Positions 16,135-53,945 of a stretch of DNA of 64,000 nt are shown here, one piece after another (position 1 is the first letter of the stretch; every line of letters starts with the position of its first letter). The notes beneath the pieces are model-generated. The model saw only the letters and a program-made list of their open reading frames with translations, did not search any database and had not been told where the DNA came from. A program made the translations under genes and the position numbers. The stretch is from an uncultured bacterium (GTDB lineage Bacteria; Fidelibacterota; Marinisomatia; Marinisomatales; TCS56): positions 1,623 to 65,622 of the forward strand of contig CAYTPW010000009.1 in the NCBI GenBank assembly GCA_964439935.1, in the 5' to 3' direction.

Positions 16135-16152
16135 TAGCAAGCTTTAAAACGC

Positions 16153-16695: not shown

Positions 16696-16713
16696 AGTAT
16701 CCCCTATCTGTAA

Positions 16714-17046: not shown

Positions 17047-17126
17047 GTTTACCTATATTATTATGGAAATTAAAAATTGAATTTATTTATTCCTCACTTT
17101 AATTGCACTGTGTGCCGACCAATTCC

Positions 17127-17603
17127 TCATAGCCTCCCAGCCACTGGCTGCTGTTGTGAACTAAACTCTATTATTCCCTGCGTCTGTAATTTTCCACGGA
17201 TTGGATTCAAGATTTCATTCTGCAATTTAAATGGAAGTTTATCTTCCTGTTCATTTTCAATCATTGTGCTGCCGAACAGTGATAGTTGAGATCCCCGCTT
17301 ATACACATATTTTTGTGCCGTGACAAATATCTTCAATCGATCTTCAATTCCCAAGACCAAGGAATAATCGTAGCGCTGTAAAAAATATTTGATCGGTTGT
17401 TGGGTTGTTACGATTAAATTGCTTTCAGGAGCATAAACATCGATCTCGTAACCTAGTTCTTCCAGGATTTGTTTGCAGGCGACCAGAGTAGCGGCTTTGG
17501 TCCCGGGATAATCAAATTCCCAAGCCATCCGAGTCGATTCTGGACATGATGACAGCTGGATCGCCAGGATCAGCGAGCCGAAAAAACGCAGTTTTCCTGA
17601 CAT
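17127..17603 (-). CDS. Hypothetical lipoprotein
   Basis: 158 aa with a signal peptide and lipobox-like LSSC. Separated by 4 nt from the upstream gene. Confidence 0.6.
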   Translation of the reverse strand: MSGKLRFFGSLILAIQLSSCPESTRMAWEFDYPGTKAATLVACKQILEELGYEIDVYAPESNLIVTTQQPIKYFLQRYDYSLVLGIEDRLKIFVTAQKYVYKRGSQLSLFGSTMIENEQEDKLPFKLQNEILNPIRGKLQTQGIIEFSSQQQPVAGRL

Positions 17604-17607
17604 CTAA

Positions 17608-18627: not shown

Positions 18628-18726
18628 GCCGGTACTCCTGTTGCCGTGGTTCAATGGACGGATTTGCCCATACCTCAAGATAGGGCAAAATACACTTTCA
18701 GCAATCTTTTCGCAAGTGTAAAAAAT

Positions 18727-26411: not shown

Positions 26412-28403
26412 TTATTTAGTTAATCCGGGTAGACGGGACCGGATTTCAGAAACCGGTAAATCGATTAAATCGTTGAAGGTAAACCGACCGTCATCGGTAA
26501 CTCGTCCAATCGTAGTGGATGGAACTCCGACATTCATGCATATACGCTCAAATTCCATAAGATCATTCTCGCCCAATGTAATCAGTACTACCCCCTGTGA
26601 CTCACCAAAAAGGAGCTCAGCCGGTAGCAGTTTTCGTGACAGATGAACCCGCGCACCAAGCTCTTCCTGAGCATAAACCAGATTATTGGCAATCGCCGCA
26701 ACCAGTCCACCCCGTCCAATACTATAAGCTGATTTAACGAATTTTCCCTCAATTCCTTGGATTATGGTTTCCTGCAGACGCCGTTCCATTCCGAAATCCA
26801 GAGTCGGTAATACACCGGCTGAGGAATTATGAAATACCTGCATATATTTTGATCCCCCCAATTCACCACGCAAACTACCCAATATGGAAATAAAATCGCC
26901 ACTATCCTTGAATACAGTAGTAACCGGCTCGCTGTTAGAGCTCATTGATCCAATTAGTCCAATCGTTGGTGAATATTGTTGAGTTATTTTTACCGGACCC
27001 GAATAAATGCTCAATTGCTGCAATCCCAGCTGGTGACAGGCACTTGAAATTCCCCTAATAACCTGACTGAAATTTAAGAGGTTATCAGCTGCCAGATCCT
27101 GATTACAGAGAATATATGCTGTAATCCCATTAGCTTTGCCCCCGTTGCAAGCCATTCTGCGAACCATTTTAGCAATCAAAATCGTCACTGACAATTGCGG
27201 ATCCAGTGCTGTCATCGATTGATTTTGTCCGATATCAAACAAGATGGAAGAATTAGTGATATCCGATGAAATGATTCGTGCCGGTTGGCCGATATTTCGA
27301 TCAGTGATATATGCCATTAAATCCAGTAACTGAAGGTTGTAATCTTCTCCATATTTTACTTCGGAGATCGCTCCGGTCTGCCGTTCAGTTTCTTCAGGAG
27401 TAAAAAGAGTTGAGTACTCCTCGATCAAACTCACATCCGGATTGTAAAGGGTTGCCGGGATATGTACCAGTATTTCACCATTATTTGTAACTGTAAAATC
27501 CAGATCTTCCTTGATGTGTCCGATAGTTTGGAAAGTCAAACTGAAATCGCTTAAAAGTGACAGCAATTCATGCTCATACCCGGCTTGAATCTGAACCATG
27601 AATAACCGTTCAATGGAAAACAATCGATCGTACATATCATCGGGGGAAACATCTTTTAGCGAAATTTCGATCCCAACGCCATTGTTTATTAAGAAATCGA
27701 TGATATCATTGATGCAGTTTCGTGTGGAGACGTCTGCCAAACGGATAATCCATGGTTTTTCGATCAACAACCGTAAAGCTTTAATAATATTTTTCCGTTG
27801 AGCTATTGTTGTCGCGCTACCCGATTTACGGTAAATACCGGTATCTACTGCAACTAAAATTCCTTGACTGGGATTGATTGTTCCCACCCGTGACTGAGCA
27901 GGAACACCAAGAACCATTAAATCTGCGCTATCTTTTTCACCAGATAAATAGGATCTTCCCGGTATAATCCGCAAATCCAAGTCACCATATTGTCGTTCTA
28001 ATTTCCGGATAATGTGCGGTAGTGAAGCAGATTCATTTTCAATTAGATTTCCACCGATGATAGCAGTACTTGGTAACCATCGTTTCAGCAACATGTTTAG
28101 TACCGAATCATGCAGGGCTACAGGCAGATTCTTCAATGAATTATTTCCATTGATTTCAGTAATATAATCACTATCCAGTTTCAAGATTGAATTTTCTGAT
28201 GTGAGGATTTCATCTTGAGCTGTCTGGTTTCGTCTAATCATATCAGCGTAAGGAAACCATTGATAAAATTCATGCCAGATATGGGCGACTACCAACTGTT
28301 CGTATTCAGTTGGAATCCTACCTAGCGAGTGGCGCAGATATTCCTGCTCGCGTTCAGTAAGCCTGCCACGGGAACCGGCTTTTTTCGTCACAGTGCTCAT
28401 CAA
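26412..28403 (-). CDS. PurL-like (FGAM synthase II / AIR-synthase-related) protein with degenerate catalytic motifs
   Basis: 663 aa. The N-terminus LGRIPTEYEQLVVAHIWHEF parallels PurL LGREPT..EL..F...WSEHC. The C-terminus GRGGLVAAIANN...LLFGESQGVVLIT...GVPSTTIGRVT parallels the PurL C-terminal half. I could not find the ESHNHPS, GAATGVGG or GRDG motifs. Confidence 0.6.
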   Translation of the reverse strand: MMSTVTKKAGSRGRLTEREQEYLRHSLGRIPTEYEQLVVAHIWHEFYQWFPYADMIRRNQTAQDEILTSENSILKLDSDYITEINGNNSLKNLPVALHDSVLNMLLKRWLPSTAIIGGNLIENESASLPHIIRKLERQYGDLDLRIIPGRSYLSGEKDSADLMVLGVPAQSRVGTINPSQGILVAVDTGIYRKSGSATTIAQRKNIIKALRLLIEKPWIIRLADVSTRNCINDIIDFLINNGVGIEISLKDVSPDDMYDRLFSIERLFMVQIQAGYEHELLSLLSDFSLTFQTIGHIKEDLDFTVTNNGEILVHIPATLYNPDVSLIEEYSTLFTPEETERQTGAISEVKYGEDYNLQLLDLMAYITDRNIGQPARIISSDITNSSILFDIGQNQSMTALDPQLSVTILIAKMVRRMACNGGKANGITAYILCNQDLAADNLLNFSQVIRGISSACHQLGLQQLSIYSGPVKITQQYSPTIGLIGSMSSNSEPVTTVFKDSGDFISILGSLRGELGGSKYMQVFHNSSAGVLPTLDFGMERRLQETIIQGIEGKFVKSAYSIGRGGLVAAIANNLVYAQEELGARVHLSRKLLPAELLFGESQGVVLITLGENDLMEFERICMNVGVPSTTIGRVTDDGRFTFNDLIDLPVSEIRSRLPGLTK

Positions 28404-35577: not shown

Positions 35578-35856
35578 TGCAGTCGTGCACCATCGCTTGA
35601 CCAGTCTGGAGATTCATCTGATCGCAATAGTTGGCTCCCCTTCAGGATACCGCCACCAATTGACTTCAACACCTACCGCTGCTCCTTTCCAGGCCTGACG
35701 GGATTTAGCGTAAAACCATTGCAACGGTTTGAAGTTTCAACGCCACTTTTCACGATTGCTGAATACAGCACCGGCCGTACTTTGGAGTTAAACCCTGCTG
35801 TAGCGGATTGCAGGTTACAGGGCACCGCTACCTCCCCGTCTAGCACGACCACAATG
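35578..35856 (-). ncRNA. ffs: Signal recognition particle RNA, long (Alu-domain-containing, Bacillus-type) form; ends approximate
   Basis: The minus strand contains the helix-8 core GTCAGGCCTGGAAAGGAGCAGCGGTAGG (compare E. coli GUCAGGUCCGGAAGGAAGCAGC). Its 5' segment GTCGTGCTAGACGGGGAGGTAGCGGTGCCCTGTAACCTGCAATCCGCTACAGCAGGG resembles my recollection of the B. subtilis scRNA Alu domain. The 3' end GGTGCACGAC can pair with the 5' GTCGTGC. It lies directly upstream of dnaX, as scr does in Bacillus. Confidence 0.8.
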
Positions 35857-35891
35857 TCAATTAACGCTCTGGTTTTCGTCTAATTCTAACG

Positions 35892-35964
<73 letters not shown>

Positions 35965-36212: not shown

Positions 36213-36590
36213 TCAATAATAAATCACAATTTTTATTTCATCCAATTCGATCCAATCCCAGAAATTCGATCGATCGAGTTTGATGACGCCGTCTTGAAAG
36301 CTGAATCGCACACGTTTGCGATACAGTGACTCGGTAAACCACTGCGAATTATTTCTTTTGTAATAAATCGCTATATATGGCGGACTGTCGGCTTTGAAAT
36401 CTGGTATTATCAGAGTACAAATCGCCTCGTTAAACTCCCCTTCTTCAGTAATAAATTCCACCTTGGTAAAACTGTATACGCGCTTGGTAAGATTTGTGTA
36501 ATCCCGGTACTTGTGAATTGATTGGCAATCAGCCCATGGCGAACAGGCACAAATTATTGCCAGAAGTAATATACCGTTCCGCCAATACAT
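36213..36590 (-). CDS. Hypothetical exported protein
   Basis: 125 aa with an N-terminal signal-like segment (GILLLAIICACSPWADC). Last gene of the 42815->36213 co-directional block. Confidence 0.55.
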   Translation of the reverse strand: MYWRNGILLLAIICACSPWADCQSIHKYRDYTNLTKRVYSFTKVEFITEEGEFNEAICTLIIPDFKADSPPYIAIYYKRNNSQWFTESLYRKRVRFSFQDGVIKLDRSNFWDWIELDEIKIVIYY

Positions 36591-36636
36591 GATTGTATAA
36601 CAACTCGAACCCAGATCTTATTTCTGTCCGGGAAGC

Positions 36637-37014
36637 TTAACTTTTTTTCTGCTCCAGCATCTCCAATCGACGTTCCCACTCACTCATTTCCCGCGCCGGT
36701 TCTTCTGTTTCTTCCTCGGCAGGTTCTTCTTCAACTATCTCAGTTTCACTTTCCTGATGTTGAATCATATTCTGTAGTTGTTCCCGGCGGGTCAGTGACC
36801 GCTGTTTTAATTCCACCAGCATTTCATTGACTTCATTATCAAATTCAGCGATTGTCCGCTCCAGGCGATTCAATAATTCATCCTGCAGAGATACACCATA
36901 CTGGGAACCAATATTTTCCAGGATGTTGCCCAGTTTTTCACTGATATAATTTGCTGCATCAATTTCTGGTGCTGGTTTGGGAGCTGTTTTGTTGGTTGTC
37001 TTTGCCACTGGCAT
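36637..37014 (-). CDS. Small acidic coiled-coil protein (paralog of 16714-17046)
   Basis: 125 aa, core YGVSLQDELLNRLERTIAEFDNEVNEMLVEL...REQLQNMI, an E-rich tract, then MSEWERRLEMLE. Separated by 8 nt from the upstream gene. Confidence 0.65.
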   Translation of the reverse strand: MPVAKTTNKTAPKPAPEIDAANYISEKLGNILENIGSQYGVSLQDELLNRLERTIAEFDNEVNEMLVELKQRSLTRREQLQNMIQHQESETEIVEEEPAEEETEEPAREMSEWERRLEMLEQKKS

Positions 37015-37022
37015 GTAACCTC

Positions 37023-37823
37023 CTATTCTTCAATATTAATGATTTTCTGCACTTCTTCTGGTGAAAGGGTAAAATGTGTTTTAGGACTGGTGAGAATATT
37101 GACCGCCTCATACATCTCCCGTCCTCCAAGTAGACCTAGCAGTATACCCATAAAACGGTAGTGCCAGCCCATTTCGGGTACAGGATTGGTATGGCCATTC
37201 CAGACTTCAGCCAATCCCAATCCCATCAAAGCACCTGCCGTATAAATCCATTTACGCCAACCATATCGGATATTAAAGAATTCGCGATATGCTATTCCAC
37301 TAACTTGATGGTAGGGAAAATCCAGGACTTGAACAGGAGTCTGGATTTGAAGAGAATGGTCAACAGATGGTAGTAAAATTCCACGGATCTTTTTACCGCT
37401 GACGTGTTTGATGATAACATATTGTCCGGTGGGTATCTCCTCCAGAATTTCACTCGTTCTTAAATATGTTAGATTTTCATAAATCTCTTGCCGATCCTTC
37501 ATCGTAATAGCCGGTTTACGATCAATCATGTGTTTTAACCTGATAAATTTATCGAAAGTATAATTCAGGGTTTTAATTTTGATCCTTCCAGATTTCAGAT
37601 AGGCAATTTTCACTTGGTAAGTATCATCAGGCAATGCAAAAATCTGGGCGCTCTCAAACCCAATCACATCTTGGAAGATTCCAAAAACGATATTCTCTTC
37701 CGCATCGATTGTTGTGCCAACCTTGGCGCTGAGAGGTATGATCTCCGGTGACTGGGAAGTTGCCCAACTTGCCAGTAATAAACCGATAATCAGGATTGTC
37801 TTATAAAACCGCCAGCAATTCAT
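37023..37823 (-). CDS. Hypothetical envelope protein (signal peptide plus C-terminal Gly-rich hydrophobic helices)
   Basis: 266 aa, signal TILIIGLLLASWATSQS. The C-terminus has two hydrophobic segments (IYTAGALMGLGLAEVW; FMGILLGLLGG). Overlaps the SelW-like gene by 23 nt. Confidence 0.6.
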   Translation of the reverse strand: MNCWRFYKTILIIGLLLASWATSQSPEIIPLSAKVGTTIDAEENIVFGIFQDVIGFESAQIFALPDDTYQVKIAYLKSGRIKIKTLNYTFDKFIRLKHMIDRKPAITMKDRQEIYENLTYLRTSEILEEIPTGQYVIIKHVSGKKIRGILLPSVDHSLQIQTPVQVLDFPYHQVSGIAYREFFNIRYGWRKWIYTAGALMGLGLAEVWNGHTNPVPEMGWHYRFMGILLGLLGGREMYEAVNILTSPKTHFTLSPEEVQKIINIEE

Positions 37824-38022
37824 CTAATTCCGGAAAACGTCCCGATTCTTTTTTTGAGAAAATCAGTTTATCATTTTTGGTCACCTCAAAAACGCCGCCT
37901 CCGGAAGGAATTAACGTCATTGACTTAATCTTATTTCCATATTTAGTTAAAATGTCCACAGCCACACTGGCTGCTCTAGGTAAATAATTTCAGGCATTAC
38001 AATATTCAATGCTTACATGCAT
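37801..38022 (-). CDS. Rdx-family (SelW/SelT/SelH-like) selenoprotein; UGA at 37992..37990 read as selenocysteine
   Basis: Not in the ORF track. My translation is MHVSIEYCNA-U-NYLPRAASVAVDILTKYGNKIKSMTLIPSGGGVFEVTKNDKLIFSKKESGRFPELDELLAVL* (73 codons). It has the CxxU redox motif, the GGGVFEV...LIFSKK..GRFPE pattern typical of bacterial SelW-like proteins, an AAAGGAG RBS 11 nt upstream of the ATG and a hairpin downstream of the UGA. Confidence 0.8.
37958..37974 (-). promoter_or_regulatory. Candidate bacterial SECIS hairpin
   Basis: On the mRNA, 15 nt after the UGA: GCAGCCA-GUG-UGGCUGU. This gives a 6-7 bp stem with G and U in the apical loop, consistent with bSECIS spacing and loop rules. 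Confidence 0.55.
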
Positions 38023-38105: not shown

Positions 38106-40337
38106 TCATAATTTAAAAGCTGTCTCGATTGTTGTTTGTTTGATCGGGATTAATTCACCGGTCCCATCATCGCGGTAGAACTGGCGAAAATCCCAAATCA
38201 TACTAACTCCGGATGCAATGGCATATCCGACCCGGTAGCCAATGATTGTATTGATGCTGGGATTAGCAAAATCAAATGGATTTGAGTCATTGTTACGCTG
38301 GTAGTAAGCACGCGCTTCACTCAATTTCGGAATCAGATCTGGTTTGATCTCAAGTCCAGCATTGAAACTGTTATACTCTAACGTATCCTTTACCATATTG
38401 GTGTAGGATGCATCGACCCGGACAAGATCGAACAGATTAATACCGGCTGATCCGTAAAAACCCGACATTGACATATCTGAATTTTCCTCACCAAATACCT
38501 GCATATCCTTGGTCCGAACAATTGTCGAAAAACCATCATTAATCGGGACAACCCGTGTTATATCGTAAGATTGATCAAAAAAGCGCGGCACGAAATAACC
38601 TGATTTAATCCGGTATTCAACATTAATATTAATCATACTGAACAGGGTTGCCTTAAGACCCGGTATTGTAATTCCGTCACCTGATCTTGCTTCCGGTCGG
38701 TAAAAGGCTGTTCCCGAATCGCCATCCGCCGGAAAACTAAGGTGGTTCCATTCTGTATATACGGTCAACTGTGCCGATTTTAATTTGATAATTGGGTAAC
38801 CTATATCCAATCCATACCCAAAGGCCTGAGCCTGGCTCCCCTGTGCGCTGAATGGTTCACTCTTTAAAATGACCTCTGTATCACTGCCACCGATCCATGG
38901 ATCAAAATATTCATCATCGTCAGAATTAGGATCCCATAATATTGAATCGGTTCCGGCATGGGGATCCGGAATTCCATCACCATCCGTATCGTTCCAGAAT
39001 AGCTTGTCATTGGGGTAATCATCAAAAGCATCGGGGTAACTATCATCATCGCTGTCAACCAATCCGGAGAATTGATTCATATCCATCACAAAATTGACAC
39101 CGAATGTGAGCGGAAAATTCCTGGAGACTGTATATGAACTTCTGAGACCCATTAATGTACCACCGCGGGAAAAATCCTTCACATTTGACAAGAAAATTTC
39201 AACGCCAAATGATCCAAAACCAAATCCACTGTTGACACCTATCTGGCGCACAGTCGGAAATTCCATCATATTGGAATAACCACTGAGAATACCGCCATAA
39301 CCCAGAGTTACGTTTTCCAGAGCGCCCAATTTAATCCAGAAGGGATCGCCTTTATCGGCCCAGCGGATGTAGAGGAATTTATCCACGATATCCGAAGCTT
39401 CATTCCACTCCTCCTGGCGGATATTACCTTCATTATCGAGGTAAATAACAAGATCAAATCCCAATCCTAGCTTACCAATTTTCAGTTCAGGTCGGAAAGC
39501 TAGCTGATTATACACAATTCCATCAATCGTCACTGAACCGACACCAAAGCCCATTCCAAATGGTTTTGACGGTGGCGAAGGAGTCGATTGCGGGACATCA
39601 GTATCCGGTGTCTCCGGGCTGGTTTCAGGCTCCGGTGCGGGTGCCTGTTCCGGCAGCACTTCCTGTGGGAATTCTTCCGGTATCGCTTCTCCCGGAGCTG
39701 GGGAATACTGTTCAATTAACTGATCCAGTTCCCCGGTTCCGACATCAGGATCGGGATCGATGGGGAATTCAGTTGGCGTGGCCGGTGCGGAGATAACATT
39801 TCCGGTTGGACTGGATAATGCTTTTTGTCCCGGTCCAATTTCCACGGACTGTCCGCTGACCAGATTGAAAACATCAAAGATTCCCTCCTGGCCGTAAAAC
39901 TGGTCGATCCCGCTGGCATCCACAATTGCAGCAAAGATGGTACCCTTCACCGATGCCACTGACGTGGGAGTTTGAACCCGGAAAGTTTTAGTCCTGTTTT
40001 CTTTATTGATATCGTTGATAATTGTGCCTATTTCTATATCGATTGTACGGGTATTCTCAGTATCAACGAACTGGAACTGAGTATTTTCCTTCATTTTAAT
40101 TACGGATTTGTCATCAAGATACATAACGACTGCAAAACTGGCTGATTCGACACGCACGATATCACCGTTACTGATCCCGAATCCTGGCTTTACTAATGTA
40201 TTAAAAGCCTCCGCAGCAACTTTTTTCAATTTGACCGAACCGTTTACTTTGATAACCCGGGCAATCGGCGTGGCTCCGATTATTTGAAAAAAAAGTGCCA
40301 CTCCCAAAATTTGGAGTAAATATTTTTTTGCCAACAT
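38106..40337 (-). CDS. Secreted FecR-domain protein with Pro/acidic linker, TSP3-like Ca-binding repeats and putative C-terminal beta-barrel (paralog 1)
   Basis: 743 aa with a signal peptide. The FecR-like N-terminal domain includes GDIVRVESASFAVVMYLDDKSVIKMKENTQFQF and FRVQTPTSVASVKGTIFAA. The linker is PAPEPETSPETPDTD. Aspartate-rich repeats are DSDDDSYPDAFDDYPND and DTDGDGIPD. The C-terminal region alternates hydrophobic and polar residues. GGAGGA RBS. Confidence 0.8.
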   Translation of the reverse strand: MLAKKYLLQILGVALFFQIIGATPIARVIKVNGSVKLKKVAAEAFNTLVKPGFGISNGDIVRVESASFAVVMYLDDKSVIKMKENTQFQFVDTENTRTIDIEIGTIINDINKENRTKTFRVQTPTSVASVKGTIFAAIVDASGIDQFYGQEGIFDVFNLVSGQSVEIGPGQKALSSPTGNVISAPATPTEFPIDPDPDVGTGELDQLIEQYSPAPGEAIPEEFPQEVLPEQAPAPEPETSPETPDTDVPQSTPSPPSKPFGMGFGVGSVTIDGIVYNQLAFRPELKIGKLGLGFDLVIYLDNEGNIRQEEWNEASDIVDKFLYIRWADKGDPFWIKLGALENVTLGYGGILSGYSNMMEFPTVRQIGVNSGFGFGSFGVEIFLSNVKDFSRGGTLMGLRSSYTVSRNFPLTFGVNFVMDMNQFSGLVDSDDDSYPDAFDDYPNDKLFWNDTDGDGIPDPHAGTDSILWDPNSDDDEYFDPWIGGSDTEVILKSEPFSAQGSQAQAFGYGLDIGYPIIKLKSAQLTVYTEWNHLSFPADGDSGTAFYRPEARSGDGITIPGLKATLFSMININVEYRIKSGYFVPRFFDQSYDITRVVPINDGFSTIVRTKDMQVFGEENSDMSMSGFYGSAGINLFDLVRVDASYTNMVKDTLEYNSFNAGLEIKPDLIPKLSEARAYYQRNNDSNPFDFANPSINTIIGYRVGYAIASGVSMIWDFRQFYRDDGTGELIPIKQTTIETAFKL

Positions 40338-40485
40338 AAAAACCGGTCCTCCGCAGAATAGTTATTGATCCCTGAAAGCACTTACGGTGGAATTTAAGTG
40401 CCCCTGAAATCTGGCAACGTGAGGAAGTTCACGTCGAACTGATTGTGATTAATTTATTGCTAAATCCAATTAAAAGGAAGAATAC

Positions 40486-40515
40486 AATCAGGGGCAAGTG
40501 AACATGCCCCTGATT
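40486..40515 (-). terminator. Strong hairpin downstream of paralog 2 (possible terminator)
   Basis: AATCAGGGGCA-(8 nt)-TGCCCCTGATT, an 11-bp stem followed on the minus strand by GTATTCTTCCTTTT, a moderate T tract. Begins 33 nt after the stop at 40548. Confidence 0.45.
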
Positions 40516-40547
40516 GATGAAAGCATCGTGATCTGACTAGAGATCAG

Positions 40548-42815
40548 CTAAAAATTAAATACCGTTTCAATAGTGGTTTGCGCGATTGGTTCCAACCCAT
40601 CACCGGTATCGCGGTAAAACTGACTGAAGTCCCAGATCAGGCTAACACCAGCACTGATTTCATACCCCAGCCGATAGCCAAAAACTGTGTTTTCAGAGGG
40701 ATTATTAAAATCAAATGGATCAGCGTCGTTATTCCGAATATAATAAGCTCTAGCCTCGCTTAATTTAGGAATCCAATCGGTGTTCAGTCCAGCTACCGCG
40801 GTAAAGCTGCGCACTGTATCGGTTTCAGCCTTCATGTTGGCATAGGAGGCCGACACATTGGCAAAGCCAAAGATATCCCAACCGGCGGATCCAAAGTAAC
40901 CTGATAGGTCAGAATCGTCGACCAAAACTAACATGTCTTTGGTATATATCTCTGTTTCGCCCTGTGAATTTCTCATTGATATTACGCGCGAAATATCATA
41001 TGACTGGTCGAAGAAACGGGGAACGAAATAACCGGTCTTATAACGATATTCGGCATTAATCTGTATCATTTTGAATAGAGTCAGCTTTACACCAGGAATA
41101 GTTATACCTGTTCCTGACTGGGTATCGCGTCCTATGAATTGAGTCCCGGAGGCGCTAGCAGATGGAAATATCAAATGATTCATCTCTGAGTAGATATCGA
41201 TCCCAATAATATTATTACTGAAAACGGGATAACCGACGTCAAATGCAAAGCCAAATGCTCTTGCATTGTTATTTTCCGTACTAAAGGGATCATTGACTAA
41301 TTCAATGAGTGAATCAGGAATGACATCGTAATACGCACTCATATCAATTCCAGTAATAGATTCTATATTCTGCCAGTACTCTAAGATAGCCGGACCAGCC
41401 ACATCTGGATAATCATCCCCATCTCTATTTGTTTCAGCTGGATCATTATCAGCGAGTCCATCATCATCACTATCTTTCCAATACTCTTCCTGATCTGGAA
41501 ATTTGTCAAATACGTCGGGATAATTATCTCCATCACGATCCTTTAATCCCGAAAACTGATTAATATCCACCACCAGATTAGCTCCAACTGTCAGCGGTAA
41601 AGCCTTCGAGAATTTATAGGAAGCCCTGGCACCCAGCAGAGTACCACCACGCATCAAATCTTTAACATTAGAAAGGAAAATTTCTGTGTTGATTTTTTCC
41701 TTGAACTGCATCCCCATGTTAACGCCCAGCTGCCGGACTGACGGATACTCCATCATATTTGAATATCCATTCAACAATCCGCCATAACCAAGTGTCACAG
41801 TCGGTAATGTTCCAAATCTGACCCAGAATGGATCACCTTTTTGGGCCCAGCTGAGATACATGATTTTATCCATGATCACGCTGGGATCATTCTTAACATC
41901 CCAGTCATCCTTGCGGACATTCCCTTCATTATCGATATACAGGACTATATCGAGGCCTACACCCAGTTTGCCGAATTTTAACTCAGGTCGTAAGGCAAAT
42001 TGATTGTAGATCACACCATCGATAGTAACAGAACCGATTCCCAATCCGAAATTATAGGGGCTGTCTTCAGCGGCTTCCCCGGTATCTTCCGGTGGAGCGA
42101 CTTCCTCAGGCACTGGTTGAGTTTCATCTGGAGTAACTTCCTCGGCACCAGTATCCTCCACTTCGGCGTCTTCGTCATCAATTTCTTCGTCAGAATCCGG
42201 TTCTGGTTCAGGTTGTGGTTCCGGCTCAGCATCCGGGTCGCTGGGATATTCATTCGGCAGTGCCGGAGCCTGAATCAAAGCACCGGCAATATTTGAAATC
42301 GCTTTCTGACCGGCGCCGATCGATACAATTTGCTGACTGATCAGATTCAATACTTCGACCAGACCACTGGACCCTAAGAACTGGTCAACACCAAATATGG
42401 AATTTACTATCGCCGTAAATTCAGTACCTTTCACCGAGGCAACAGATGTTGGTGTTTCAATCCGAAATGTTTTAGACCTACCCTCAGTGGCGATCTGATT
42501 GATCAGTGTTCCATTTTCAATTTTCAGTGTACGGCTGCTTTCTGAATCCACGAATTCGAATTCGGAATTCTCTTTAACCTTAATAACCGACCGGTCATCG
42601 ATAAATACCACCACAGCGAATCCTAGTTCGCCAACTTTCAGGGCATCACCATTGTTAATGGCAACTCCTGGCGCGGCGGCTTCTGCAAACTCGGGTCCAC
42701 CCAGCCTTTTAATATTTACTTCACCTTGAGCTTTCATTACCCGGGCAATGGATTCGGCTACAGTAAATCCGGTCATCAGACAAATGACCATTAAACAAAT
42801 AATTATTTTTTTCAT
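40548..42815 (-). CDS. Secreted FecR-domain protein with Pro/acidic linker, TSP3-like repeats and putative C-terminal beta-barrel (paralog 2)
   Basis: 755 aa, collinear with 38106-40337. Shared blocks are FRxxTPTSVASVKGT, GSVTIDGxxYNQ, GDPFW, LGYGGxLxGYSNMMExP, EIFLSNVKD, GITIPGxK, GYFVPRFFDQSYDI, IPKLSEARAYY and QTTIET. Ends in ...VFNF, a C-terminal Phe as in many OMPs. Confidence 0.8.
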   Translation of the reverse strand: MKKIIICLMVICLMTGFTVAESIARVMKAQGEVNIKRLGGPEFAEAAAPGVAINNGDALKVGELGFAVVVFIDDRSVIKVKENSEFEFVDSESSRTLKIENGTLINQIATEGRSKTFRIETPTSVASVKGTEFTAIVNSIFGVDQFLGSSGLVEVLNLISQQIVSIGAGQKAISNIAGALIQAPALPNEYPSDPDAEPEPQPEPEPDSDEEIDDEDAEVEDTGAEEVTPDETQPVPEEVAPPEDTGEAAEDSPYNFGLGIGSVTIDGVIYNQFALRPELKFGKLGVGLDIVLYIDNEGNVRKDDWDVKNDPSVIMDKIMYLSWAQKGDPFWVRFGTLPTVTLGYGGLLNGYSNMMEYPSVRQLGVNMGMQFKEKINTEIFLSNVKDLMRGGTLLGARASYKFSKALPLTVGANLVVDINQFSGLKDRDGDNYPDVFDKFPDQEEYWKDSDDDGLADNDPAETNRDGDDYPDVAGPAILEYWQNIESITGIDMSAYYDVIPDSLIELVNDPFSTENNNARAFGFAFDVGYPVFSNNIIGIDIYSEMNHLIFPSASASGTQFIGRDTQSGTGITIPGVKLTLFKMIQINAEYRYKTGYFVPRFFDQSYDISRVISMRNSQGETEIYTKDMLVLVDDSDLSGYFGSAGWDIFGFANVSASYANMKAETDTVRSFTAVAGLNTDWIPKLSEARAYYIRNNDADPFDFNNPSENTVFGYRLGYEISAGVSLIWDFSQFYRDTGDGLEPIAQTTIETVFNF

Positions 42816-46113: not shown

Positions 46114-47289
46114 TTGAACCGAATATTTTTAACCGTCCTGTGCTTTGGAAATCTGATGAGTACAAGCCAGCTATTGGCTGCGGGTGAAAATATTACTAAA
46201 GCTAGTAATTGGGGGTATAGTTACAATGATTTACTTAACGATCTGCCAATTTGGAATGCCAGTCCCTGGGTAACTCTCGATTCGATCGGTGCCAGCGTTC
46301 AGGGAAGAGCATTGTGGGAGTTGACCATCACCGATACCCTGCCACACGATTCACCGCGTCGCACTATCTATATGCACGTTCGCACCCATCCCAATGAAGT
46401 ACAGTCATTCTGGGTTGCCAACGAATTTATCAATCTGCTTCTTTCTGATGATCCTTACGCTGCGTTTTTACGATCGCGATGCACTTTCTATATTATTCCC
46501 ATGTATAATCCCGATGGTGTCGAACTCGGCTTTCCCAGGGAAAATGCCAACGGAATAGATATTGAAAGCAACTGGGCCGATATTCCAATGCAACCAGAAC
46601 CAACGGCCTTGAAGCAGCGATTTACAGACCTGATGGCATCCGCCGCTCCGATAGAAATAGCACTAAATATGCATTCTGCGTACAGAGCCGCTGTTAGGTA
46701 TTTTGTCTATCACCATGAGAATGGAACATCATACGAGTATACTCAGCTGGAACAGCAATTCATTGGAGCAGTTCAATCATATTTTCCTACCGGGATCGCC
46801 CCCTGGTACCACACTGTTACCTGGACCAATTTTACTCCCGATTATTATCCCGAAAGCTGGTTCTGGCTGAACCACGGTAATTCTGTAATGGCTTTGACTT
46901 ACGAAGATATGAACAATGATCAGGCAGGCTTGTATGATTCCACTGCCTACGCTCTGCTTCATGGGATAGGTGACTATCTGGGATTGGTTCCCTCAACAAC
47001 TGTTGTTGAAGTAACTGATCATCCTCAAACATTCACTCTGAACCAAAATTATCCCAATCCATTTAATCCGATCACAACAATCAGTTATTATCTCATAAAA
47101 CCGGGATATGTTACCATGAATATATTAGACTTGAGAGGTCGTACAGTGGCAACTCCAGTAAATACATTCCAATCAGCTGGGAACAAACAAATACAGTGGA
47201 ACGGTGAACTGTATCCCACAGGAACATATTTCTACCAGCTAATAGTCGACGGACGGCAACAAACAGGGAAAATGACTATGCTAAAATAG
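46114..47289 (+). CDS. Secreted zinc carboxypeptidase (peptidase M14) with T9SS C-terminal sorting domain
   Basis: 391 aa with a TTG start and a signal peptide. Has an HPNE zinc motif, PMYNPDG and NMHSA. The C-terminus NYPNPFNPITTISYYL...GTYFYQL...KMTMLK matches the Por_Secre_tail pattern. Confidence 0.8.
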   Translation: MNRIFLTVLCFGNLMSTSQLLAAGENITKASNWGYSYNDLLNDLPIWNASPWVTLDSIGASVQGRALWELTITDTLPHDSPRRTIYMHVRTHPNEVQSFWVANEFINLLLSDDPYAAFLRSRCTFYIIPMYNPDGVELGFPRENANGIDIESNWADIPMQPEPTALKQRFTDLMASAAPIEIALNMHSAYRAAVRYFVYHHENGTSYEYTQLEQQFIGAVQSYFPTGIAPWYHTVTWTNFTPDYYPESWFWLNHGNSVMALTYEDMNNDQAGLYDSTAYALLHGIGDYLGLVPSTTVVEVTDHPQTFTLNQNYPNPFNPITTISYYLIKPGYVTMNILDLRGRTVATPVNTFQSAGNKQIQWNGELYPTGTYFYQLIVDGRQQTGKMTMLK

Positions 47290-47360
47290 CCCCTGTCAGT
47301 ATTAATTTCATAACCAGCCTGATCATTTAAGACTCTTATTAATCTTCAGGATTGCATGCG

Positions 47361-48617
47361 ATGACATCACATCCACTAATAAAGCTGATAGCCGATAAAA
47401 ATCTGTTGGGGAATCTAGCCGACGAATATGGCACTCCGACCTACATCTATTCGCAACCGCGCCTGCTCGACAATATTAACCGACTAGATAAAGCACTGCG
47501 GCAGAATTTTGATAAGTATCATATCTGCTATGCAGTTAAAGCAAACAGTAATCCTAATTTAATTGCGGTGATGAAGGCTCACCTGCCCAACCTGGGTGGA
47601 GATTGCGCAAGTCCTGGTGAGATCGAAGCAGCTTGGTTAGCCGGAATCAAATCGCAAGATTGTATTTACACTGGAAATTATGAATCGCCCGCAGATTTGC
47701 AGTACGCCCTGGATTCTCGCATTTGCATCAATCTGGATGATGTATCATCATTGGACCGTTTAGCGCGCCTAAAGCTACCGAAACGTCTGTCATTCCGGCT
47801 TAATCCCGGATTTGGTAGGGGCATGTTTAAACAGATCAATACGGGAGGTGAAAAGGCAAAATTCGGTGTTCCCCGACATGATATTATTAATGCTTATTCG
47901 AAAGCGTTGAATCTGGGAGTCAAACGTTTTGGGCTACAATGCATGACCGGATCCGGTATTTTGGATAAAGATTATTTTGCAAGCTTATTGACCGCAATCC
48001 TGGATTCCGCTAAAAATATCGATACAGAACTCGGCATTAAAATGGAATATATATCTATCGGGGGTGGGCTGGGAATTCCATATCAGGACAAAGATCAGCC
48101 CCTGCCAATTGATTACGTGATGAAGCAACTTGGTGAAGTTTTTTATCAATATTATGACCGGAAAGCAATCGATTGTCCAGCTCTATGGCTCGAGCCGGGT
48201 AAGTATATTGTTGGCGATAGTGGATTCGTATTATCAAGAGTAACCGGGATTAAAAAAGGGTACCGCACTTTTATTGGTTTGGATGCTGGGATGGAAACCA
48301 TCCTTAGACCGGCCCTCTACCAAGCATACCATAGATTTTTAAAGGTCGGTGATCCCGATGCCAATCCGGTTGGCAAAGTCGACTTTACCGGCCAGATTTG
48401 CGAAAATACAGACCGCCAGGCCATTGATCGGTCTTTCCCTTCTGTCGCAGAAGGAGATTTAATAGCGATTATGGATGCGGGAGCATATGGATTTGTAATG
48501 TCAATGAATTATAACTCACGTCCCCGGCCGTCGGAGGTTTTATTGACTGAATCGGGATCCCAGTTAATTCGCCATCGTGAAATGATCGATGATATTTATG
48601 CTAAATGCATTTTATAA
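47361..48617 (+). CDS. lysA: Diaminopimelate decarboxylase (PLP-dependent, Orn/DAP/Arg decarboxylase family 2)
   Basis: LADEYGTPTYIY N-terminus, PLP lysine in YAVKAN, then GGGLGIPY, EPGKYIVG, CENTD and AGAYGFVMSMNYNSRPRP. ATG at 47361; the track uses the TTG at 47352. Confidence 0.85.
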   Translation: MTSHPLIKLIADKNLLGNLADEYGTPTYIYSQPRLLDNINRLDKALRQNFDKYHICYAVKANSNPNLIAVMKAHLPNLGGDCASPGEIEAAWLAGIKSQDCIYTGNYESPADLQYALDSRICINLDDVSSLDRLARLKLPKRLSFRLNPGFGRGMFKQINTGGEKAKFGVPRHDIINAYSKALNLGVKRFGLQCMTGSGILDKDYFASLLTAILDSAKNIDTELGIKMEYISIGGGLGIPYQDKDQPLPIDYVMKQLGEVFYQYYDRKAIDCPALWLEPGKYIVGDSGFVLSRVTGIKKGYRTFIGLDAGMETILRPALYQAYHRFLKVGDPDANPVGKVDFTGQICENTDRQAIDRSFPSVAEGDLIAIMDAGAYGFVMSMNYNSRPRPSEVLLTESGSQLIRHREMIDDIYAKCIL

Positions 48618-51048
48618 AAGATTAGTTGGCTTCCTGATCTTATTGGGCATAATAGTCGCCCAGGATCACCAATCGATCCATCAGGAGCAGGCTGAATATT
48701 ATCGGCAGAATTATCGTCACCCGGCTAAACCCGACGACAGTGGTCCTCTGCTACCCAAGCAATTGCGAACAACTGAACCAAGTCATACTGTATTCGGTTA
48801 TCACCCTTACTGGATGGGAACTGCCTGGCAGAATTATAATTACAATTTGCTTACTACTGTTGCTTGGTTCAGTGCCGAAGCAACCCCAACCGGGCAGTTG
48901 AGCGATCTGAACGGCTGGCCGGTAACCGGATTGATTAACCTGGCACATTCCCATGGAGTCGAGGTTGTACTTTGCGTGACCCTGTTTGATGACGCGGATC
49001 TGACCACACTACTGAGCAATCCTTCTTATCGCCAGAATTTGATCAATAATTTGATCGCACAGATTCAAGCCGGGAATGCGGATGGCGTCAATATTGATTT
49101 TGAAGATTTCCCCAGCTCGCAAGAAAATAGTATGGTCCAATTTATCAGCGATTTGACTGACGCATTCCATTCGCAAATCCCAGGATCGCAGGTTACACTA
49201 GCCACTCCTGCTGTGGATTGGAGTAATGAATGGGATTACAATGCTCTGGCGGCTGCCAGTGATGGCTTATTCATCATGGGCTATGGCTATCATTGGTCAG
49301 GCAGTGACTACACCGGTGCGATTGCTCCTTTAACCGGTGGATCTTACAATATTACCTGGACCGTAAATGATTATCTAACCAAGACGAATAATCAATCTGA
49401 TAAAATCATCCTGGGCCTACCCTATTATGGTCGCGAATGGGAAGCTGTAAGCGCCAGTCCCGGAGCAGCAACCCTCAGTTCTGGAGCGGTACGGTTATAT
49501 GATGCTGCCGAAGCACTGGCAATGACCTACGGCAGAATCTGGCACGGCAGTTCACAGACTCCCTATTATACCTATCAAAATCCCGGTTGGTACCAGGGCT
49601 GGTATGACGACAGTTTGTCATTATCCATAAAATACGATCTGGCGATCCAGAATGATCTTCAGGGTGTGGGAATGTGGGCATTGGGCTATGACGGTTCAAG
49701 TCCCAAATTATGGCAAGCGCTGGCAGATAAATTTGGTGGAGTATTACCACCCACGGAACCGCAGAATTTTACCATCAGTAATCTTGGGAATGGAACTGTT
49801 GAAATTGATTTTAGCGGCTCTAATTCGGCAGATAGTCTCACCATTCTGCGTCACTATCTAAATTCAAGTCAAATTGATATACTTGGCACATATGACCAGC
49901 ACCCGATTCTGGTCAATAGTTTAGCAACCACCGAGACCTATTTTATCAGCGTCGTTGCTTCAAACGCTGCTGGTGATAGCCCCGCGACCGAAATACTGGG
50001 TGTCAAACCAGATACTAATCTATCCAATGCGTTGATAATCAACGGTTTTGACCGCCAGTCCGGAACTACTAATCCCCGAAACTACTTTACTCAGCACGGA
50101 TCTGCACTAGGGCAAGCTGGAATCAGCTTCGATGGTGCCTGTAATGAAGCTGTTATTGAAGGATTGATCAACCTGAATGATTACACCGTGGTGGACTGGA
50201 TATTGGGTGAAGAAGGCGCTACAAACTCAACATTTACACTCGCAGAGCAAGCTCTAATCCAGGCCTATCTTGAACAAGGTGGACATCTTATGGTCTCAGG
50301 TTCCGAAATCGGCTATGACCTGGTTGACCAAGGTAATAGCCTGGATCAGGATTTCTATTCCAATTATCTTAAAGCAGAATATGTCACAGATGCCGCCGGT
50401 GGCCAATCTGGTGTTTATCAGGCCTGGGGAGTTTCAGGAAGCATTTTTGATGGTATCAATGCAATCAATTTTGACAACGGAACCCATGGAACTTATGATG
50501 TCGATTGGCCTGATGGCATTTTACCAATCGTTGGGGCACAAAATTGTGCCCGTTATACCTCTGTGGATTACGACGCTAAAGGTGGTACCGGAATAGTATA
50601 TAATGGTCCCTTCGGAACCAGTACGGCATACGGGGCTCTGGTTTATTTGGCGATCGGTTTTGAAGCTATATATCCGGAATCAAAGCGAAATGAGCTTATG
50701 TCGCGGATTACTGATTATTTTGATCAAGCGGAAGGTGGAACAATCAATCCCCCTGAAATACCAGTCGAATTTGGAATCACCTCAATTTACCCAAATCCGA
50801 CTAATAGTACAGTCACGATTGAGTTTTCATTGGCCTTAAATGTCGCTCAACCGGTTGAAATTAGTATAATTGATATGCTGGGTCGCACAATTCAAACATT
50901 AGTTCTTACACAACAACAATTAACTAATAACCGAGTAAGCTGGAATGGATACTCTGCCAAAGGTTCTATTGCTCCGTCAGGGGTATATATTGCCTTGCTA
51001 AAATCCGGTTCAAAATCCGATATCAGTAAATTTACGGTATTAAAATGA
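48598..51048 (+). CDS. Secreted multidomain glycoside hydrolase family 18 protein with Fn3-like region, unknown domain and T9SS C-terminal domain
   Basis: Signal peptide. GH18 catalytic block ADGVNIDFEDF (DxxDxDxE). An Fn3-like segment (PPTEPQNFTISNLGNGTVEIDF), then an unassigned domain of about 250 aa. The C-terminus is YPNPTNSTVTIEFSL...GVYIALL...KFTVLK. The start is 48598 or 48589, overlapping the lysA end. Confidence 0.8.
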   Translation: MLNAFYKRLVGFLILLGIIVAQDHQSIHQEQAEYYRQNYRHPAKPDDSGPLLPKQLRTTEPSHTVFGYHPYWMGTAWQNYNYNLLTTVAWFSAEATPTGQLSDLNGWPVTGLINLAHSHGVEVVLCVTLFDDADLTTLLSNPSYRQNLINNLIAQIQAGNADGVNIDFEDFPSSQENSMVQFISDLTDAFHSQIPGSQVTLATPAVDWSNEWDYNALAAASDGLFIMGYGYHWSGSDYTGAIAPLTGGSYNITWTVNDYLTKTNNQSDKIILGLPYYGREWEAVSASPGAATLSSGAVRLYDAAEALAMTYGRIWHGSSQTPYYTYQNPGWYQGWYDDSLSLSIKYDLAIQNDLQGVGMWALGYDGSSPKLWQALADKFGGVLPPTEPQNFTISNLGNGTVEIDFSGSNSADSLTILRHYLNSSQIDILGTYDQHPILVNSLATTETYFISVVASNAAGDSPATEILGVKPDTNLSNALIINGFDRQSGTTNPRNYFTQHGSALGQAGISFDGACNEAVIEGLINLNDYTVVDWILGEEGATNSTFTLAEQALIQAYLEQGGHLMVSGSEIGYDLVDQGNSLDQDFYSNYLKAEYVTDAAGGQSGVYQAWGVSGSIFDGINAINFDNGTHGTYDVDWPDGILPIVGAQNCARYTSVDYDAKGGTGIVYNGPFGTSTAYGALVYLAIGFEAIYPESKRNELMSRITDYFDQAEGGTINPPEIPVEFGITSIYPNPTNSTVTIEFSLALNVAQPVEISIIDMLGRTIQTLVLTQQQLTNNRVSWNGYSAKGSIAPSGVYIALLKSGSKSDISKFTVLK

Positions 51049-52352
51049 AATCAATTACCATCCTGTTTGCAGTAGGAATTTGTGCTAGTTTCGTAATGGC
51101 TCAAAATCACCCCTCGATCCACCAGGAACAGGCACGGCAACACAAAGGGCAGATTAATCCACCAGCGGACAAAATTAATGTCCTGAATGGGATTGATGTT
51201 TTGCTGGAGCAGCAAGCTAACAGGTTGACTGGCAAGAATATCGCACTGGTGACAAATCATTCCGGGATTGACAAACAAGGTCAGCCCAATTATCAACGCT
51301 TAATGGAACTGGAACAAATCAACCTGCAGGTTATCTTTTCACCCGAGCATGGATTATTCGGAGAAGCCGCTGCAGGTGAAAAAGTGAAGTATGGAAAAGA
51401 TATTAAAGAATTACCTGAGGTAATAAGTCTATATGGGAAAATAAGGAAACCTACAGCGGAAATGCTCAATGGTATTGATCTTATTCTTTACGACATCCAG
51501 GATATTGGCGCACGTTTTTACACCTATATTTCTACGATGGGTCTGGTAATGGAGGCAGCCGGTGAATTGGGAATACCGATTTGGATTCTTGATCGACCTA
51601 ATCCGATTCGAGCAGATTTGGTGGAAGGACCTGTTTTGGATATCAATTATCAGTCTTTTGTTGGCTACTACCCGATTCCGATTCGTTATGGCTTAACGGC
51701 AGGAGAACTGGCACAGATGATCGTTGGTGAAAAATGGATAATCACAATTCCAGAACTTGAAGTAATTCCATTGCAGGATTGGACTCGCGATCGCTGGTTC
51801 GATGAAACTGACCTGCCCTGGATTAAACCATCTCCGAATATTACAGACCTCGAAACAGCGCTAATCTACCCTGGTATGTGTCTATTGGAAGCTACTAATG
51901 TCAGTGAAGGCCGGGGTACCTATCAACCATTTAAAAAGTTTGGTGCTCCCTGGATCGATGGCCACCGATTAGCACAATCGCTTAACAAACAACATTTGCC
52001 AGGCGTTATATTTAAACCGGTACAATTTATTCCCGTATCTATCCCCGGAATGTCAGGTAAGCCCAAGTACCAGGACTTAGCTTGTCAAGGAATCGAAATA
52101 GTGGTTACTAATCGAACGAAATATCGAAGTTTAATGGTGGGAATCAGCGTCCTGTCCACAATTCAATCACAGTATCCGGATGAATTAAAATTCCGGACGA
52201 ATAGCTTAAACCGATTATGGGGATCAGATTCACATCAGGCAACGATAAATTCATATCCCGAACAAACCGAATACATTGATTCCGGCCAGGTGGAATATCA
52301 TGAAATTGCAAAGAAATATCATATTTATTCCAATAGTTACAGAAATCCCTAG
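51045..52352 (+). CDS. namZ: DUF1343 / NamZ-type exo-beta-N-acetylmuramidase
   Basis: 435 aa with a signal peptide. GKNIALVTNHSGID, SLYGKIRKPTAEML..IDLILYDIQDIGARFYTYISTM and EGRGT closely follow my recollection of the B. subtilis YbbC/NamZ pattern. ATGA overlap with the GH18 stop. Confidence 0.8.
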   Translation: MKSITILFAVGICASFVMAQNHPSIHQEQARQHKGQINPPADKINVLNGIDVLLEQQANRLTGKNIALVTNHSGIDKQGQPNYQRLMELEQINLQVIFSPEHGLFGEAAAGEKVKYGKDIKELPEVISLYGKIRKPTAEMLNGIDLILYDIQDIGARFYTYISTMGLVMEAAGELGIPIWILDRPNPIRADLVEGPVLDINYQSFVGYYPIPIRYGLTAGELAQMIVGEKWIITIPELEVIPLQDWTRDRWFDETDLPWIKPSPNITDLETALIYPGMCLLEATNVSEGRGTYQPFKKFGAPWIDGHRLAQSLNKQHLPGVIFKPVQFIPVSIPGMSGKPKYQDLACQGIEIVVTNRTKYRSLMVGISVLSTIQSQYPDELKFRTNSLNRLWGSDSHQATINSYPEQTEYIDSGQVEYHEIAKKYHIYSNSYRNP

Positions 52353-52489
52353 ACAAATCTCAAATTAATCTGCCATCAAAATTAAGTGACCAAAACAAGT
52401 AACTTCCATTATGACCTCCATGTTGTATTTTCTGAAAGTTACTAATCCTATTCAAACTCGGATTCCACCGATTAAATCTTGTATTTAAT

Positions 52490-53932
52490 ATGAAATTATT
52501 GATCCGATTGCTTATCTTGTCTACTCTGCTTTTTATAGGTGGGTGTTCTCAGATTCCCCGAACGTACGCCGTCAAGGGTCACCCTATCCTGTCACATAAA
52601 ATTAAGTCTGCTATTGACGATTCGGGATTGGTAACTAATCTGGGAATCAATGTACTAGATCTGAGGAACGGAAAAACCCTGTATCAACTAAATTCCAACC
52701 ACCTGTTTACCCCGGCCAGTAATAATAAATTATATACCGCGGCGGCCGCACTCCATTACCTGGGACCGGATTATCGCTTCAGTACTACGGTCTGGACAGA
52801 TAGCAGTGGCATTACAAACGGTCGGGTCAACAAATTGATACTGAAAGGCGGTGGCGATCCTGATTTTTCCCTGACCAGTCTTGATTCTCTGGCGGGAGTC
52901 CTCAAGCAGGATATCACCGCCATCGATACATTAATTGTTGATAATTCCCGTCTCGATTCAATTCGTTTTGGTGAAGGTTGGATGTGGGATGAAGGTTCCT
53001 GGTGGTATGCTGCACAGATCGATGCCATGTCCCTGAATGACAACTGCATAGATATTGATATTGCTCCCGGAATCCTCGGTCAGGCACCGCAAATAACAAT
53101 CAATCCACCAACCAATTATGTGACCTTGAACAATCTTTCTCAGACCGTCGCCGATACGTTGGATTTACAATCCATGAAAATTGAGCGGCGCTGGTGGGAT
53201 TTCAGCAATACTATCGATATCACCGGTGATATACTATTTACCGAGGAACGAGACACTATTTACCGAAATATTGAATATCCGGCACGATTTGCCGGAAAAA
53301 CATTCAGCGAATCGTTGATCAGGCAGGGTATTTCGTTTGATGGACCGATAATTATCGAAACCATCCCACGTGGCACACAGCTGATTGCGGAACATATTTC
53401 AGATTCTCTTTTCGTGTCGTTAAGGAATTTCTTAAAAGAGAGTGATAACCTTACCGGTGAACTTCTGATCAAGACAATCGGCCGGGAAACCAGCGGTCAG
53501 CAGGGTAATTGGCAAAACGGTCTGCTGGCAGTAAAAACATTCTTAAATGATATAGCCGCTATCGACACCACCGAATTGAGGATGGTCGATGGTTCCGGCG
53601 TATCCCGGTATAACCTAACCAGACCCGACCAATTAGTAACGATTCTGGAATATGTTTTTAATCAATCCGGATTCAAGTCCGAATATCTGGCTTCCCTACC
53701 ATTGTCCGGAGTTGATGGCACCTTAGAAGAAAGAATGGAAAATGACCGAGCCAAAGGCCAGATTTTGGCTAAGACCGGGACCCTCTCCGGTGCAAGTTGT
53801 CTGTCCGGTTATGCTTTTACCAGTTCTGGAACACCGTTGGCATTTTCGATCATGATGAATGGATATGTGGGATCATCGGGACCTTATCGAAAACTTCAGG
53901 ACGATATCTGCACAATTTTGGCAACCTATTAA
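52490..53932 (+). CDS. dacB: D-alanyl-D-alanine carboxypeptidase/endopeptidase (PBP4, peptidase S13), lipoprotein
   Basis: 480 aa, lipobox FIGGC, SxxK (ASNNK), SxN (SDN) and KTG (AKTGT) motifs. Confidence 0.88.
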   Translation: MKLLIRLLILSTLLFIGGCSQIPRTYAVKGHPILSHKIKSAIDDSGLVTNLGINVLDLRNGKTLYQLNSNHLFTPASNNKLYTAAAALHYLGPDYRFSTTVWTDSSGITNGRVNKLILKGGGDPDFSLTSLDSLAGVLKQDITAIDTLIVDNSRLDSIRFGEGWMWDEGSWWYAAQIDAMSLNDNCIDIDIAPGILGQAPQITINPPTNYVTLNNLSQTVADTLDLQSMKIERRWWDFSNTIDITGDILFTEERDTIYRNIEYPARFAGKTFSESLIRQGISFDGPIIIETIPRGTQLIAEHISDSLFVSLRNFLKESDNLTGELLIKTIGRETSGQQGNWQNGLLAVKTFLNDIAAIDTTELRMVDGSGVSRYNLTRPDQLVTILEYVFNQSGFKSEYLASLPLSGVDGTLEERMENDRAKGQILAKTGTLSGASCLSGYAFTSSGTPLAFSIMMNGYVGSSGPYRKLQDDICTILATY

Positions 53933-53945
53933 GGGAGAAGAATAA

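Follow-up and report, generated by a model that had tools for sequence, protein, structure and literature searches.

A predicted SelW-like selenoprotein gene with an in-frame TGA and a SECIS-type hairpin in an uncultured member of the Fidelibacterota

Does the TGA that follows the tenth codon of a small minus-strand gene end its translation, or is it read as selenocysteine (Sec)? This question is raised by the locus at 38022..37801 of a 64,000-nucleotide stretch of DNA (contig CAYTPW010000009.1 of assembly GCA_964439935.1, positions 1,623 to 65,622), which was analysed as a whole, is called the window below, and originates from an uncultured bacterium of the Fidelibacterota (Marinisomatia, Marinisomatales, TCS56). 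An earlier note, made from the DNA letters without database searches, had proposed here an Rdx/SelW-like selenoprotein gene with an in-frame UGA and a hairpin resembling a selenocysteine insertion sequence (SECIS), and the family, homologue and hairpin evidence presented in this article agrees with that proposal as a prediction. Judged from the sequence, the locus very probably encodes a 73-residue Rdx protein of thioredoxin fold, belonging to the prokaryotic SelW-like proteins, with a Cys8-x-x-Sec11 motif in which the UGA would be decoded as Sec with the help of the SECIS. The elements on which the argument is built are the following.

37801..38022, minus strand: full coding sequence of the predicted SelW-like/Rdx selenoprotein, 73 residues (MHVSIEYCNAUNYLPRAAS...LLAVL) plus TAA, from translation and profile scores
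38034..38040, minus strand: Shine-Dalgarno-like AAAGGAG, 11 nt upstream of the ATG, read from the sequence
38022..38020, minus strand: start codon ATG, read from the sequence
37999..38001, minus strand: Cys8 codon TGT, first residue of the CxxU redox motif, invariant in the full-length alignment A4
37990..37992, minus strand: in-frame TGA, predicted selenocysteine codon, residue 11, from homologue codons and structure alignment
37958..37974, minus strand: putative bacterial SECIS hairpin, stem GCAGCCA/UGGCUGU, loop GUG
37974..37968, 37967..37965 and 37964..37958, minus strand: its parts GCAGCCA, GUG and UGGCUGU, read from the sequence
37803..37801, minus strand: stop codon TAA, from translation
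37801..37965, minus strand: truncated 54-aa open reading frame (ORF) starting with GTG, from the ORF list, identical with the tail of the Rdx gene

Reading frame, family and fold

Translation of the minus strand gives ten codons (MHVSIEYCNA), the TGA, 62 sense codons and the TAA, and GGAG-type motifs stand at a similar distance from the start in several orthologous loci as well. The start codon, ribosome binding site, ten-codon peptide, TGA, 62 downstream codons, TAA and hairpin position that the earlier note had described were all reproduced from the sequence. Its statement that the ORF track contained only an antisense ORF of 63 aa in this place was correct in part: the antisense ORF (37796..37987, plus strand) is present, but the 54-aa GTG ORF of the sense strand is listed too, and it is this truncated frame that a standard gene caller would output instead of the full SelW-like gene.

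In all profile queries of the 73-residue protein U was written as C. The whole protein reached 83.9 bits (E = 8.9e-24) on Pfam Rdx (PF10262), the profile that had been named for this comparison, and this is far above the cutoff of 22.6. It also scored 96.6 bits on the NCBIfam equivalog NF041051 'SelT/SelW/SelH family (seleno)protein' (cutoff 88) and 66.8 bits on TIGR02174 (cutoff 34.2). When the 62 residues following the TGA were taken alone, they obtained 59.8 bits (E = 3.1e-16) on Pfam Rdx, therefore the similarity downstream of the TGA is real and in frame. Solved structures of Cys-form bacterial Rdx proteins (2fa8, 3dex, 2ojl, 2p0g, 2obk and 2oka) matched the window protein with E values from 1e-12 to 1e-8 (best 1.4e-12), and these PDB homologues (2fa8, 3dex and others) align over its residues 3-69. 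The CTQC of 2fa8 and 3dex, a CxxC motif, falls onto C8-N-A-U11, that is, the TGA occupies the position of the second Cys of CxxC. The Rdx family match across the UGA, proposed in the earlier note, is highly significant in Pfam, in NCBIfam and among the PDB homologues.

The fold was modelled by AlphaFold2 on P0001, a database homologue of 82% identity with W at the Sec position, using an alignment of database relatives. The model had a pLDDT (predicted local distance difference test score) of 95.2, with strand beta1 at residues 2-8, helix alpha1 at residues 14-31 and Cys8 at the end of beta1. In Foldseek it superposed on 2fa8, 2obk, 3dex and 2p0g with a template modelling (TM) score of 0.93 and a root-mean-square deviation of 0.8 A, while MIEN1, mouse SelW and thioredoxins appeared as weaker matches. 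Through this close homologue a thioredoxin-like fold is predicted for the window protein, and according to the secondary structure of the P0001 model its CxxU motif would lie at the end of beta1, before alpha1.

The TGA among homologues and the hairpin behind it

The codon homologous to the TGA was followed in 80 homologous loci of named genomes, one per species, the locus search having used 16 closer sequences. It was TGA in 79 of the 80 loci and TGC in a single one, a gammaproteobacterial metagenome-assembled genome (MAG); further Cys forms at the UGA position were met in the database proteins P0054 and P0060. The best genome-locus matches to the window gene were Marinimicrobia MAGs, and the closest loci, with identities up to 78%, belong to Marinimicrobia/Neomarinimicrobiota/Fidelibacterota. 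Other loci come from Bacillota (Desulforamulus putei, Alkaliphilus, Natronincola and others), Planctomycetota, Chloroflexota and Fibrobacteraceae. The TGA form is also present in the complete Fidelibacterota chromosomes CP070787.1 (L042), CP070638.1 (L063) and OZ252221.1 (L045). On either side of the TGA the window gene differs from its nearest relatives by frequent synonymous codon changes, which argues that both parts are translated and stand under purifying selection, and Cys8 is unchanged throughout the alignment A4 of full-length homologues. The comparison with homologues that the earlier note had recommended yielded an alignment that crosses the UGA in the same frame; on the level of sequence, the UGA appears to be aligned with the Sec or Cys of homologues, with conservation continuing downstream.

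The published model of the bacterial SECIS (bSECIS) prescribes an apical loop of 3-9 nt on an upper stem of 4-16 bp, a G within the first two loop positions, typically as N1-G-[G/U]-N-N2 with N1 and N2 paired, a loop placed 16-37 nt away from the UGA, and a minimum free energy (MFE) of -7.5 kcal/mol or lower (PMC13188914). The window hairpin begins 15 nt after the UGA and has its apical loop at a distance of 22 nt from it; its stem of 7 bp includes one G.U pair, the loop of 3 nt is closed by an A-U pair, and the energy is -9.6 kcal/mol for the centroid and -9.1 kcal/mol for the isolated element, so all four published requirements agree with it. Its loop context A-GUG-U corresponds to the N1-G-[G/U]-N-N2 pattern of the bSECISearch model (Zhang and Gladyshev, per PMC13188914). 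It should be emphasized that the bSECIS model is permissive and purely structural, and that the hairpin is a SECIS predicted from sequence alone. As a background, 1.8% of the 2812 TGA trinucleotides of the window satisfy the model, and 31 of the 2812 (1.1%) precede a model-conforming hairpin whose stability equals or exceeds that of the candidate.

The covariation of the stem was analysed in alignment A3, which contains 79 sequences, is ungapped and was anchored on the UGA. The proportion of paired cells was 78.5%, compared with 18-52% when the 3' partner was slid, and the covariation score of 0.338, compared with at most 0.125 in the slid controls, was reached by none of 500 shuffles. Columns 24 and 36 are third positions of two Ala codons; among the sequences with Ala in both places (n=64) 88% were paired as opposed to 41% after shuffling (p <= 5e-5, where it has to be considered that the sequences of A3 are related by descent and the shuffle p-values are optimistic). 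The pairs found at these columns were C-G 18, G-C 17, A-U 10, G-U 6, U-A 4 and U-G 1, and such third-position pairing between Ala codons cannot be produced by amino-acid conservation. Local MFE folding kept the register of the hairpin in 58 of the 79 sequences; in the other 21, which represent more distant lineages, the hairpin was shifted by a few nucleotides. The hairpin that had been put forward as a SECIS candidate accordingly fits the published model in spacing, loop, stem and energy and is conserved with compensatory changes, and these sequence patterns indicate selection acting on the RNA. Covariation at synonymous sites of the codons offers a worked example of an RNA signal that constrains a coding sequence.

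In the mechanism proposed for this locus the hairpin at 37974..37958, placed with the 22-nt spacing given above, would be bound during translation by SelB together with guanosine triphosphate (GTP) and Sec-tRNA(Sec), and SelB would deliver selenocysteine at the UGA (37992..37990), replacing termination. In the finished protein the Sec selenolate, located in the loop between beta1 and alpha1, may attack an oxidised substrate, after which Cys8 would resolve the Sec as an intramolecular selenenylsulfide, and a cellular thiol reductant would then reduce it. A thiol-based redox role of SelW-like proteins has been inferred earlier from the CxxU motif and the fold (PMC1088965). We infer that the organism carries the Sec machinery, and the presence of the SelW-like gene would imply selenium use by a Marinimicrobia-like organism.

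Alternative readings of the TGA and the Sec machinery

Several observations weigh against the decoding of this UGA as Sec. None of selA, selB and selD was recognized among the larger ORFs of the 64-kb window, which is a fraction of one genome and is uninformative in this respect, and no tRNA-Sec was detected by ARAGORN in the window, nor in the 60 loci L002-L061. In a survey from 2016 three single-cell genomes of SAR406 were classed as 'orphan SelD', with no other selenium-trait or selenoprotein genes detected in them (PMC5029168). Concerning the hairpin, RNAalifold gave no consensus structure on the 79-sequence alignment, and a strict contiguous-stem test at -7.5 kcal/mol was passed by only 22 of the 79 homologues, because many stems hold a mismatch. 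The Infernal run suggested for the hairpin region in the earlier note was done with Rfam, both at the gathering threshold and at E <= 10, and brought no SECIS-like match in the region; Rfam covers little of the bacterial SECIS diversity, which is probably the reason for this null result. Additionally, two Cys-form homologues (L071 and L088) keep some stem potential there, thus the peptide motif RAAx[LMV]A accounts for part of the self-complementarity. Their stems are G+C-rich, stand in the same place as the SECIS and have loops of 6-8 nt without the conserved G; with n = 2, these stems could either follow incidentally from the RAAxMA peptide motif or be the relic of a former SECIS.

If the TGA were a real stop, the locus would be a decayed pseudogene, or it would code for a 10-residue peptide and, from the GTG at 37965, for a 54-residue truncated Rdx. 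Mechanical ORF calling yields exactly this 54-aa ORF, the public gene calls of the relatives have 54-58 aa, and the lack of Sec machinery in the window is also in line with a stop; nevertheless, the TGA is kept in nearly all homologues across several phyla, the ten upstream codons, among them that of the invariant Cys, encode a conserved peptide, differ by synonymous substitutions and are preceded by a ribosome binding site, and the truncated product would be left without strand beta1 and the whole redox motif. The hairpin, moreover, covaries at synonymous sites, and a pseudogene would not keep that; termination at this codon is consequently considered very unlikely. Reassignment of TGA to Trp or Gly (codes 4 and 25), which would place one of these residues at position 11, could be supposed from thirteen full-length database homologues that show W in place of Sec, but this W (P0001-P0013 set) is most likely an artefact of code-4/25 gene calls on short contigs. 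The 40 domain-supported ORFs of the window end with TAA in 17, TGA in 17 and TAG in 6 cases, the domain matches of the genes ending with TGA are complete, and TGG, the codon used for Trp, is present 200 times. TGA being the terminator of 17 of the 40 genes points to the standard code, and this stop-codon usage effectively refutes reassignment, which has only a vanishing probability; the position in question is, furthermore, aligned with the catalytic second Cys of CxxC in the solved structures.

The UGA might also be decoded outside the SelA/SelB/tRNA-Sec system, either by near-cognate read-through with Cys or Trp without a SECIS, or by an undescribed SelD-dependent route. The latter was considered because the 'orphan SelD' listing of SAR406 stands against a widespread syntenic UGA-form gene with a covarying SECIS; it is in accordance with such a route that only SelD was reported from those single-cell genomes and that our literature search found no documentation of selA, selB or selC in Marinimicrobia and no direct report on their Sec machinery. 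On the other hand, the hairpin fits a SelB-type bSECIS in its spacing, loop and conserved G-U and appears to be under selection as RNA, and the same gene form occurs in genera with reported SelW-like and other selenoproteins (Desulfotomaculum, Alkaliphilus). Gaps are to be expected in single-cell genomes and would account for the genes not detected there. Non-canonical decoding is judged to be highly improbable on this basis, and the chance that Marinimicrobia are really without canonical SelA/SelB and recode the UGA by a new SelD-dependent route is similarly slight; it is far likelier that the selenoprotein was overlooked because the single-cell genomes were incomplete and the gene calls truncated. 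The 2016 listing is in slight tension with the wide occurrence of SelW-like genes of the TGA form among Marinimicrobia MAGs, and the tension is likely due to this same incompleteness and truncation. The SelW-like gene, read as a selenoprotein gene with SECIS-directed decoding, suggests that the 'orphan SelD' label of SAR406 was probably an artefact.

Two other candidates of the window were examined and rejected. The ORF at 26412-28403 (minus strand) was suspected to be SelD from its AIRS_C domain, and it was ruled out since it is PurL-like by NCBIfam. This protein of 663 aa with AIRS/AIRS_C domains resembles PurL weakly (160 bits in relation to an equivalog cutoff of 648), its N-terminal approximately 200 residues match nothing, and its gene is conserved beside recX in the relatives L082 and L085. 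When the window was scanned for further ORFs split by a single TGA as possible selenoprotein genes, the top candidate (TGA at 30065-30063, minus strand) proved to be a LigT-like phosphoesterase gene and recA, two complete genes in the same frame, and nothing convincing was found besides.

Known relatives, public annotation and genomic neighbourhood

SelW-like proteins with CxxU outnumbered every other prokaryotic selenoprotein family in the Sargasso Sea survey of 2005, with 48 genes (PMC1088965), and were again at the top in the Global Ocean Sampling (GOS) data in 2008, with 427 genes and an enrichment in marine samples (PMC2398784); they have been listed for Desulfotomaculum, Alkaliphilus, Geobacter, Symbiobacterium and others (PMC1794560). 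The window gene lies above the curated cutoffs of these prokaryotic SelW-like selenoproteins (PF10262, formerly PF05169; TIGR02174; NF041051), and it shares with them the CxxU position, the in-frame UGA with a small G-containing hairpin and the marine-bacterial setting. There is no difference of kind: the sequence is new, and the syntenic context is of a Marinimicrobia type, for which no description was found in the literature searched. The window gene thus adds a member to a family that has been described in detail and is not a new kind, and the general knowledge of selenoproteins is unchanged by it.

The Cys-form Rdx proteins (Atu0228 2FA8, SAV_2001 3DEX, 2OBK, 2OKA, 2OJL and 2P0G) have the fold, as seen through the P0001 model, and the place of the redox motif in common with the window protein, but they carry CxxC, have about 100-108 residues in the deposited constructs and need no recoding signal, whereas the window protein has CxxU and 73 residues. 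Mouse SelW (2NPB) and MIEN1 (2LJK) likewise belong to the Rdx superfamily; their fold is thioredoxin-like, and beta1 is followed by CxxU in SelW or by a CxxC-type motif, but they are far more distant (TM 0.67-0.77, 21-31% identity, Foldseek ranks 22 and 26). The SECIS of eukaryotic SelW is located in the 3'-untranslated region. Its architecture in the literature differs from that of the window element, which lies inside the coding sequence, directly after the UGA.

Protein relatives were searched in a collection of 5.8 billion proteins, to no entry of which the window protein is more than 82% identical. The relatives fall into two classes: those of 54-58 residues start just after the TGA, while the full-length ones, of 73-77 residues, have W where Sec is predicted except for one with S (P0003), where the Ser possibly reflects a TCA codon; distant members carry CxxC. 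The gene had been called unannotated in the earlier note, and this holds for the present locus and for the public calls of its relatives (54-58 aa fragments or W) but not for the family, which has long been known and has its own NCBI equivalog. The fragments of 54-58 residues lose the active site, and every related public assembly examined either truncates the protein or writes Trp. As a consequence of such annotation errors the selenoproteomes of uncultured marine phyla would be systematically undercounted.

The organism is most likely one of the Marinimicrobia (SAR406, Fidelibacterota), where Rdx belongs to a conserved core region of the chromosome whose gene order recurs in the related contigs. 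This order begins with a FAD-oxidase/Fe-S fusion and one or two FecR-domain proteins (about 750 aa), followed by Rdx, an unknown protein (about 250-266 aa), a further two unknowns (about 125 aa), tRNA-Ala(CGC), dnaX, ybaB and recR, and it continues after recR with pgsA, pgpA, cinA, ligT, recA, recX and the PurL-like gene. In each syntenic public assembly (loci L082-L087 among them) Rdx was called as a 54-58 aa fragment. In the window two paralogous FecR-domain proteins of about 750 aa (38106-42815, minus strand) stand upstream of Rdx, and three ORFs without family matches, of 266, 125 and 125 aa (36213-37823, minus strand), stand downstream; the first of them, of 266 aa, resembles a signal peptide at its N-terminus and overlaps with its ATG the 3' end of Rdx by 23 nt. 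The conserved synteny of the three ORFs and the FecR proteins with Rdx in Marinimicrobia suggests a possible functional link. The tRNA-Ala(CGC) lies 1-2 kb downstream of Rdx in many Marinimicrobia loci, and in the window it is adjoined by a large-type bacterial signal recognition particle (SRP) RNA gene (35583-35964, minus strand; Rfam RF01854, 129 bits), which sits between tRNA-Ala(CGC) and dnaX, upstream of dnaX-ybaB-recR.

Farther from Rdx, a region of about 5 kb (13819-18678) contains ORFs of 230, 133, 139, 180, 158 and 356 aa, with no Pfam/NCBIfam match where tested. On the plus strand, 46114-54875 harbours a cluster of enzymes acting on cell-wall fragments, in which an M14 carboxypeptidase and a GH18 hydrolase both have C-terminal sorting domains of the type IX secretion system (T9SS), and which also contains a NamZ exo-muramidase, an S13 DD-carboxypeptidase and an LD-carboxypeptidase. 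This cluster fits the muropeptide-scavenging lifestyle reported for the cultured Fidelibacterota member Fidelibacter multiformis (PMC11652737).

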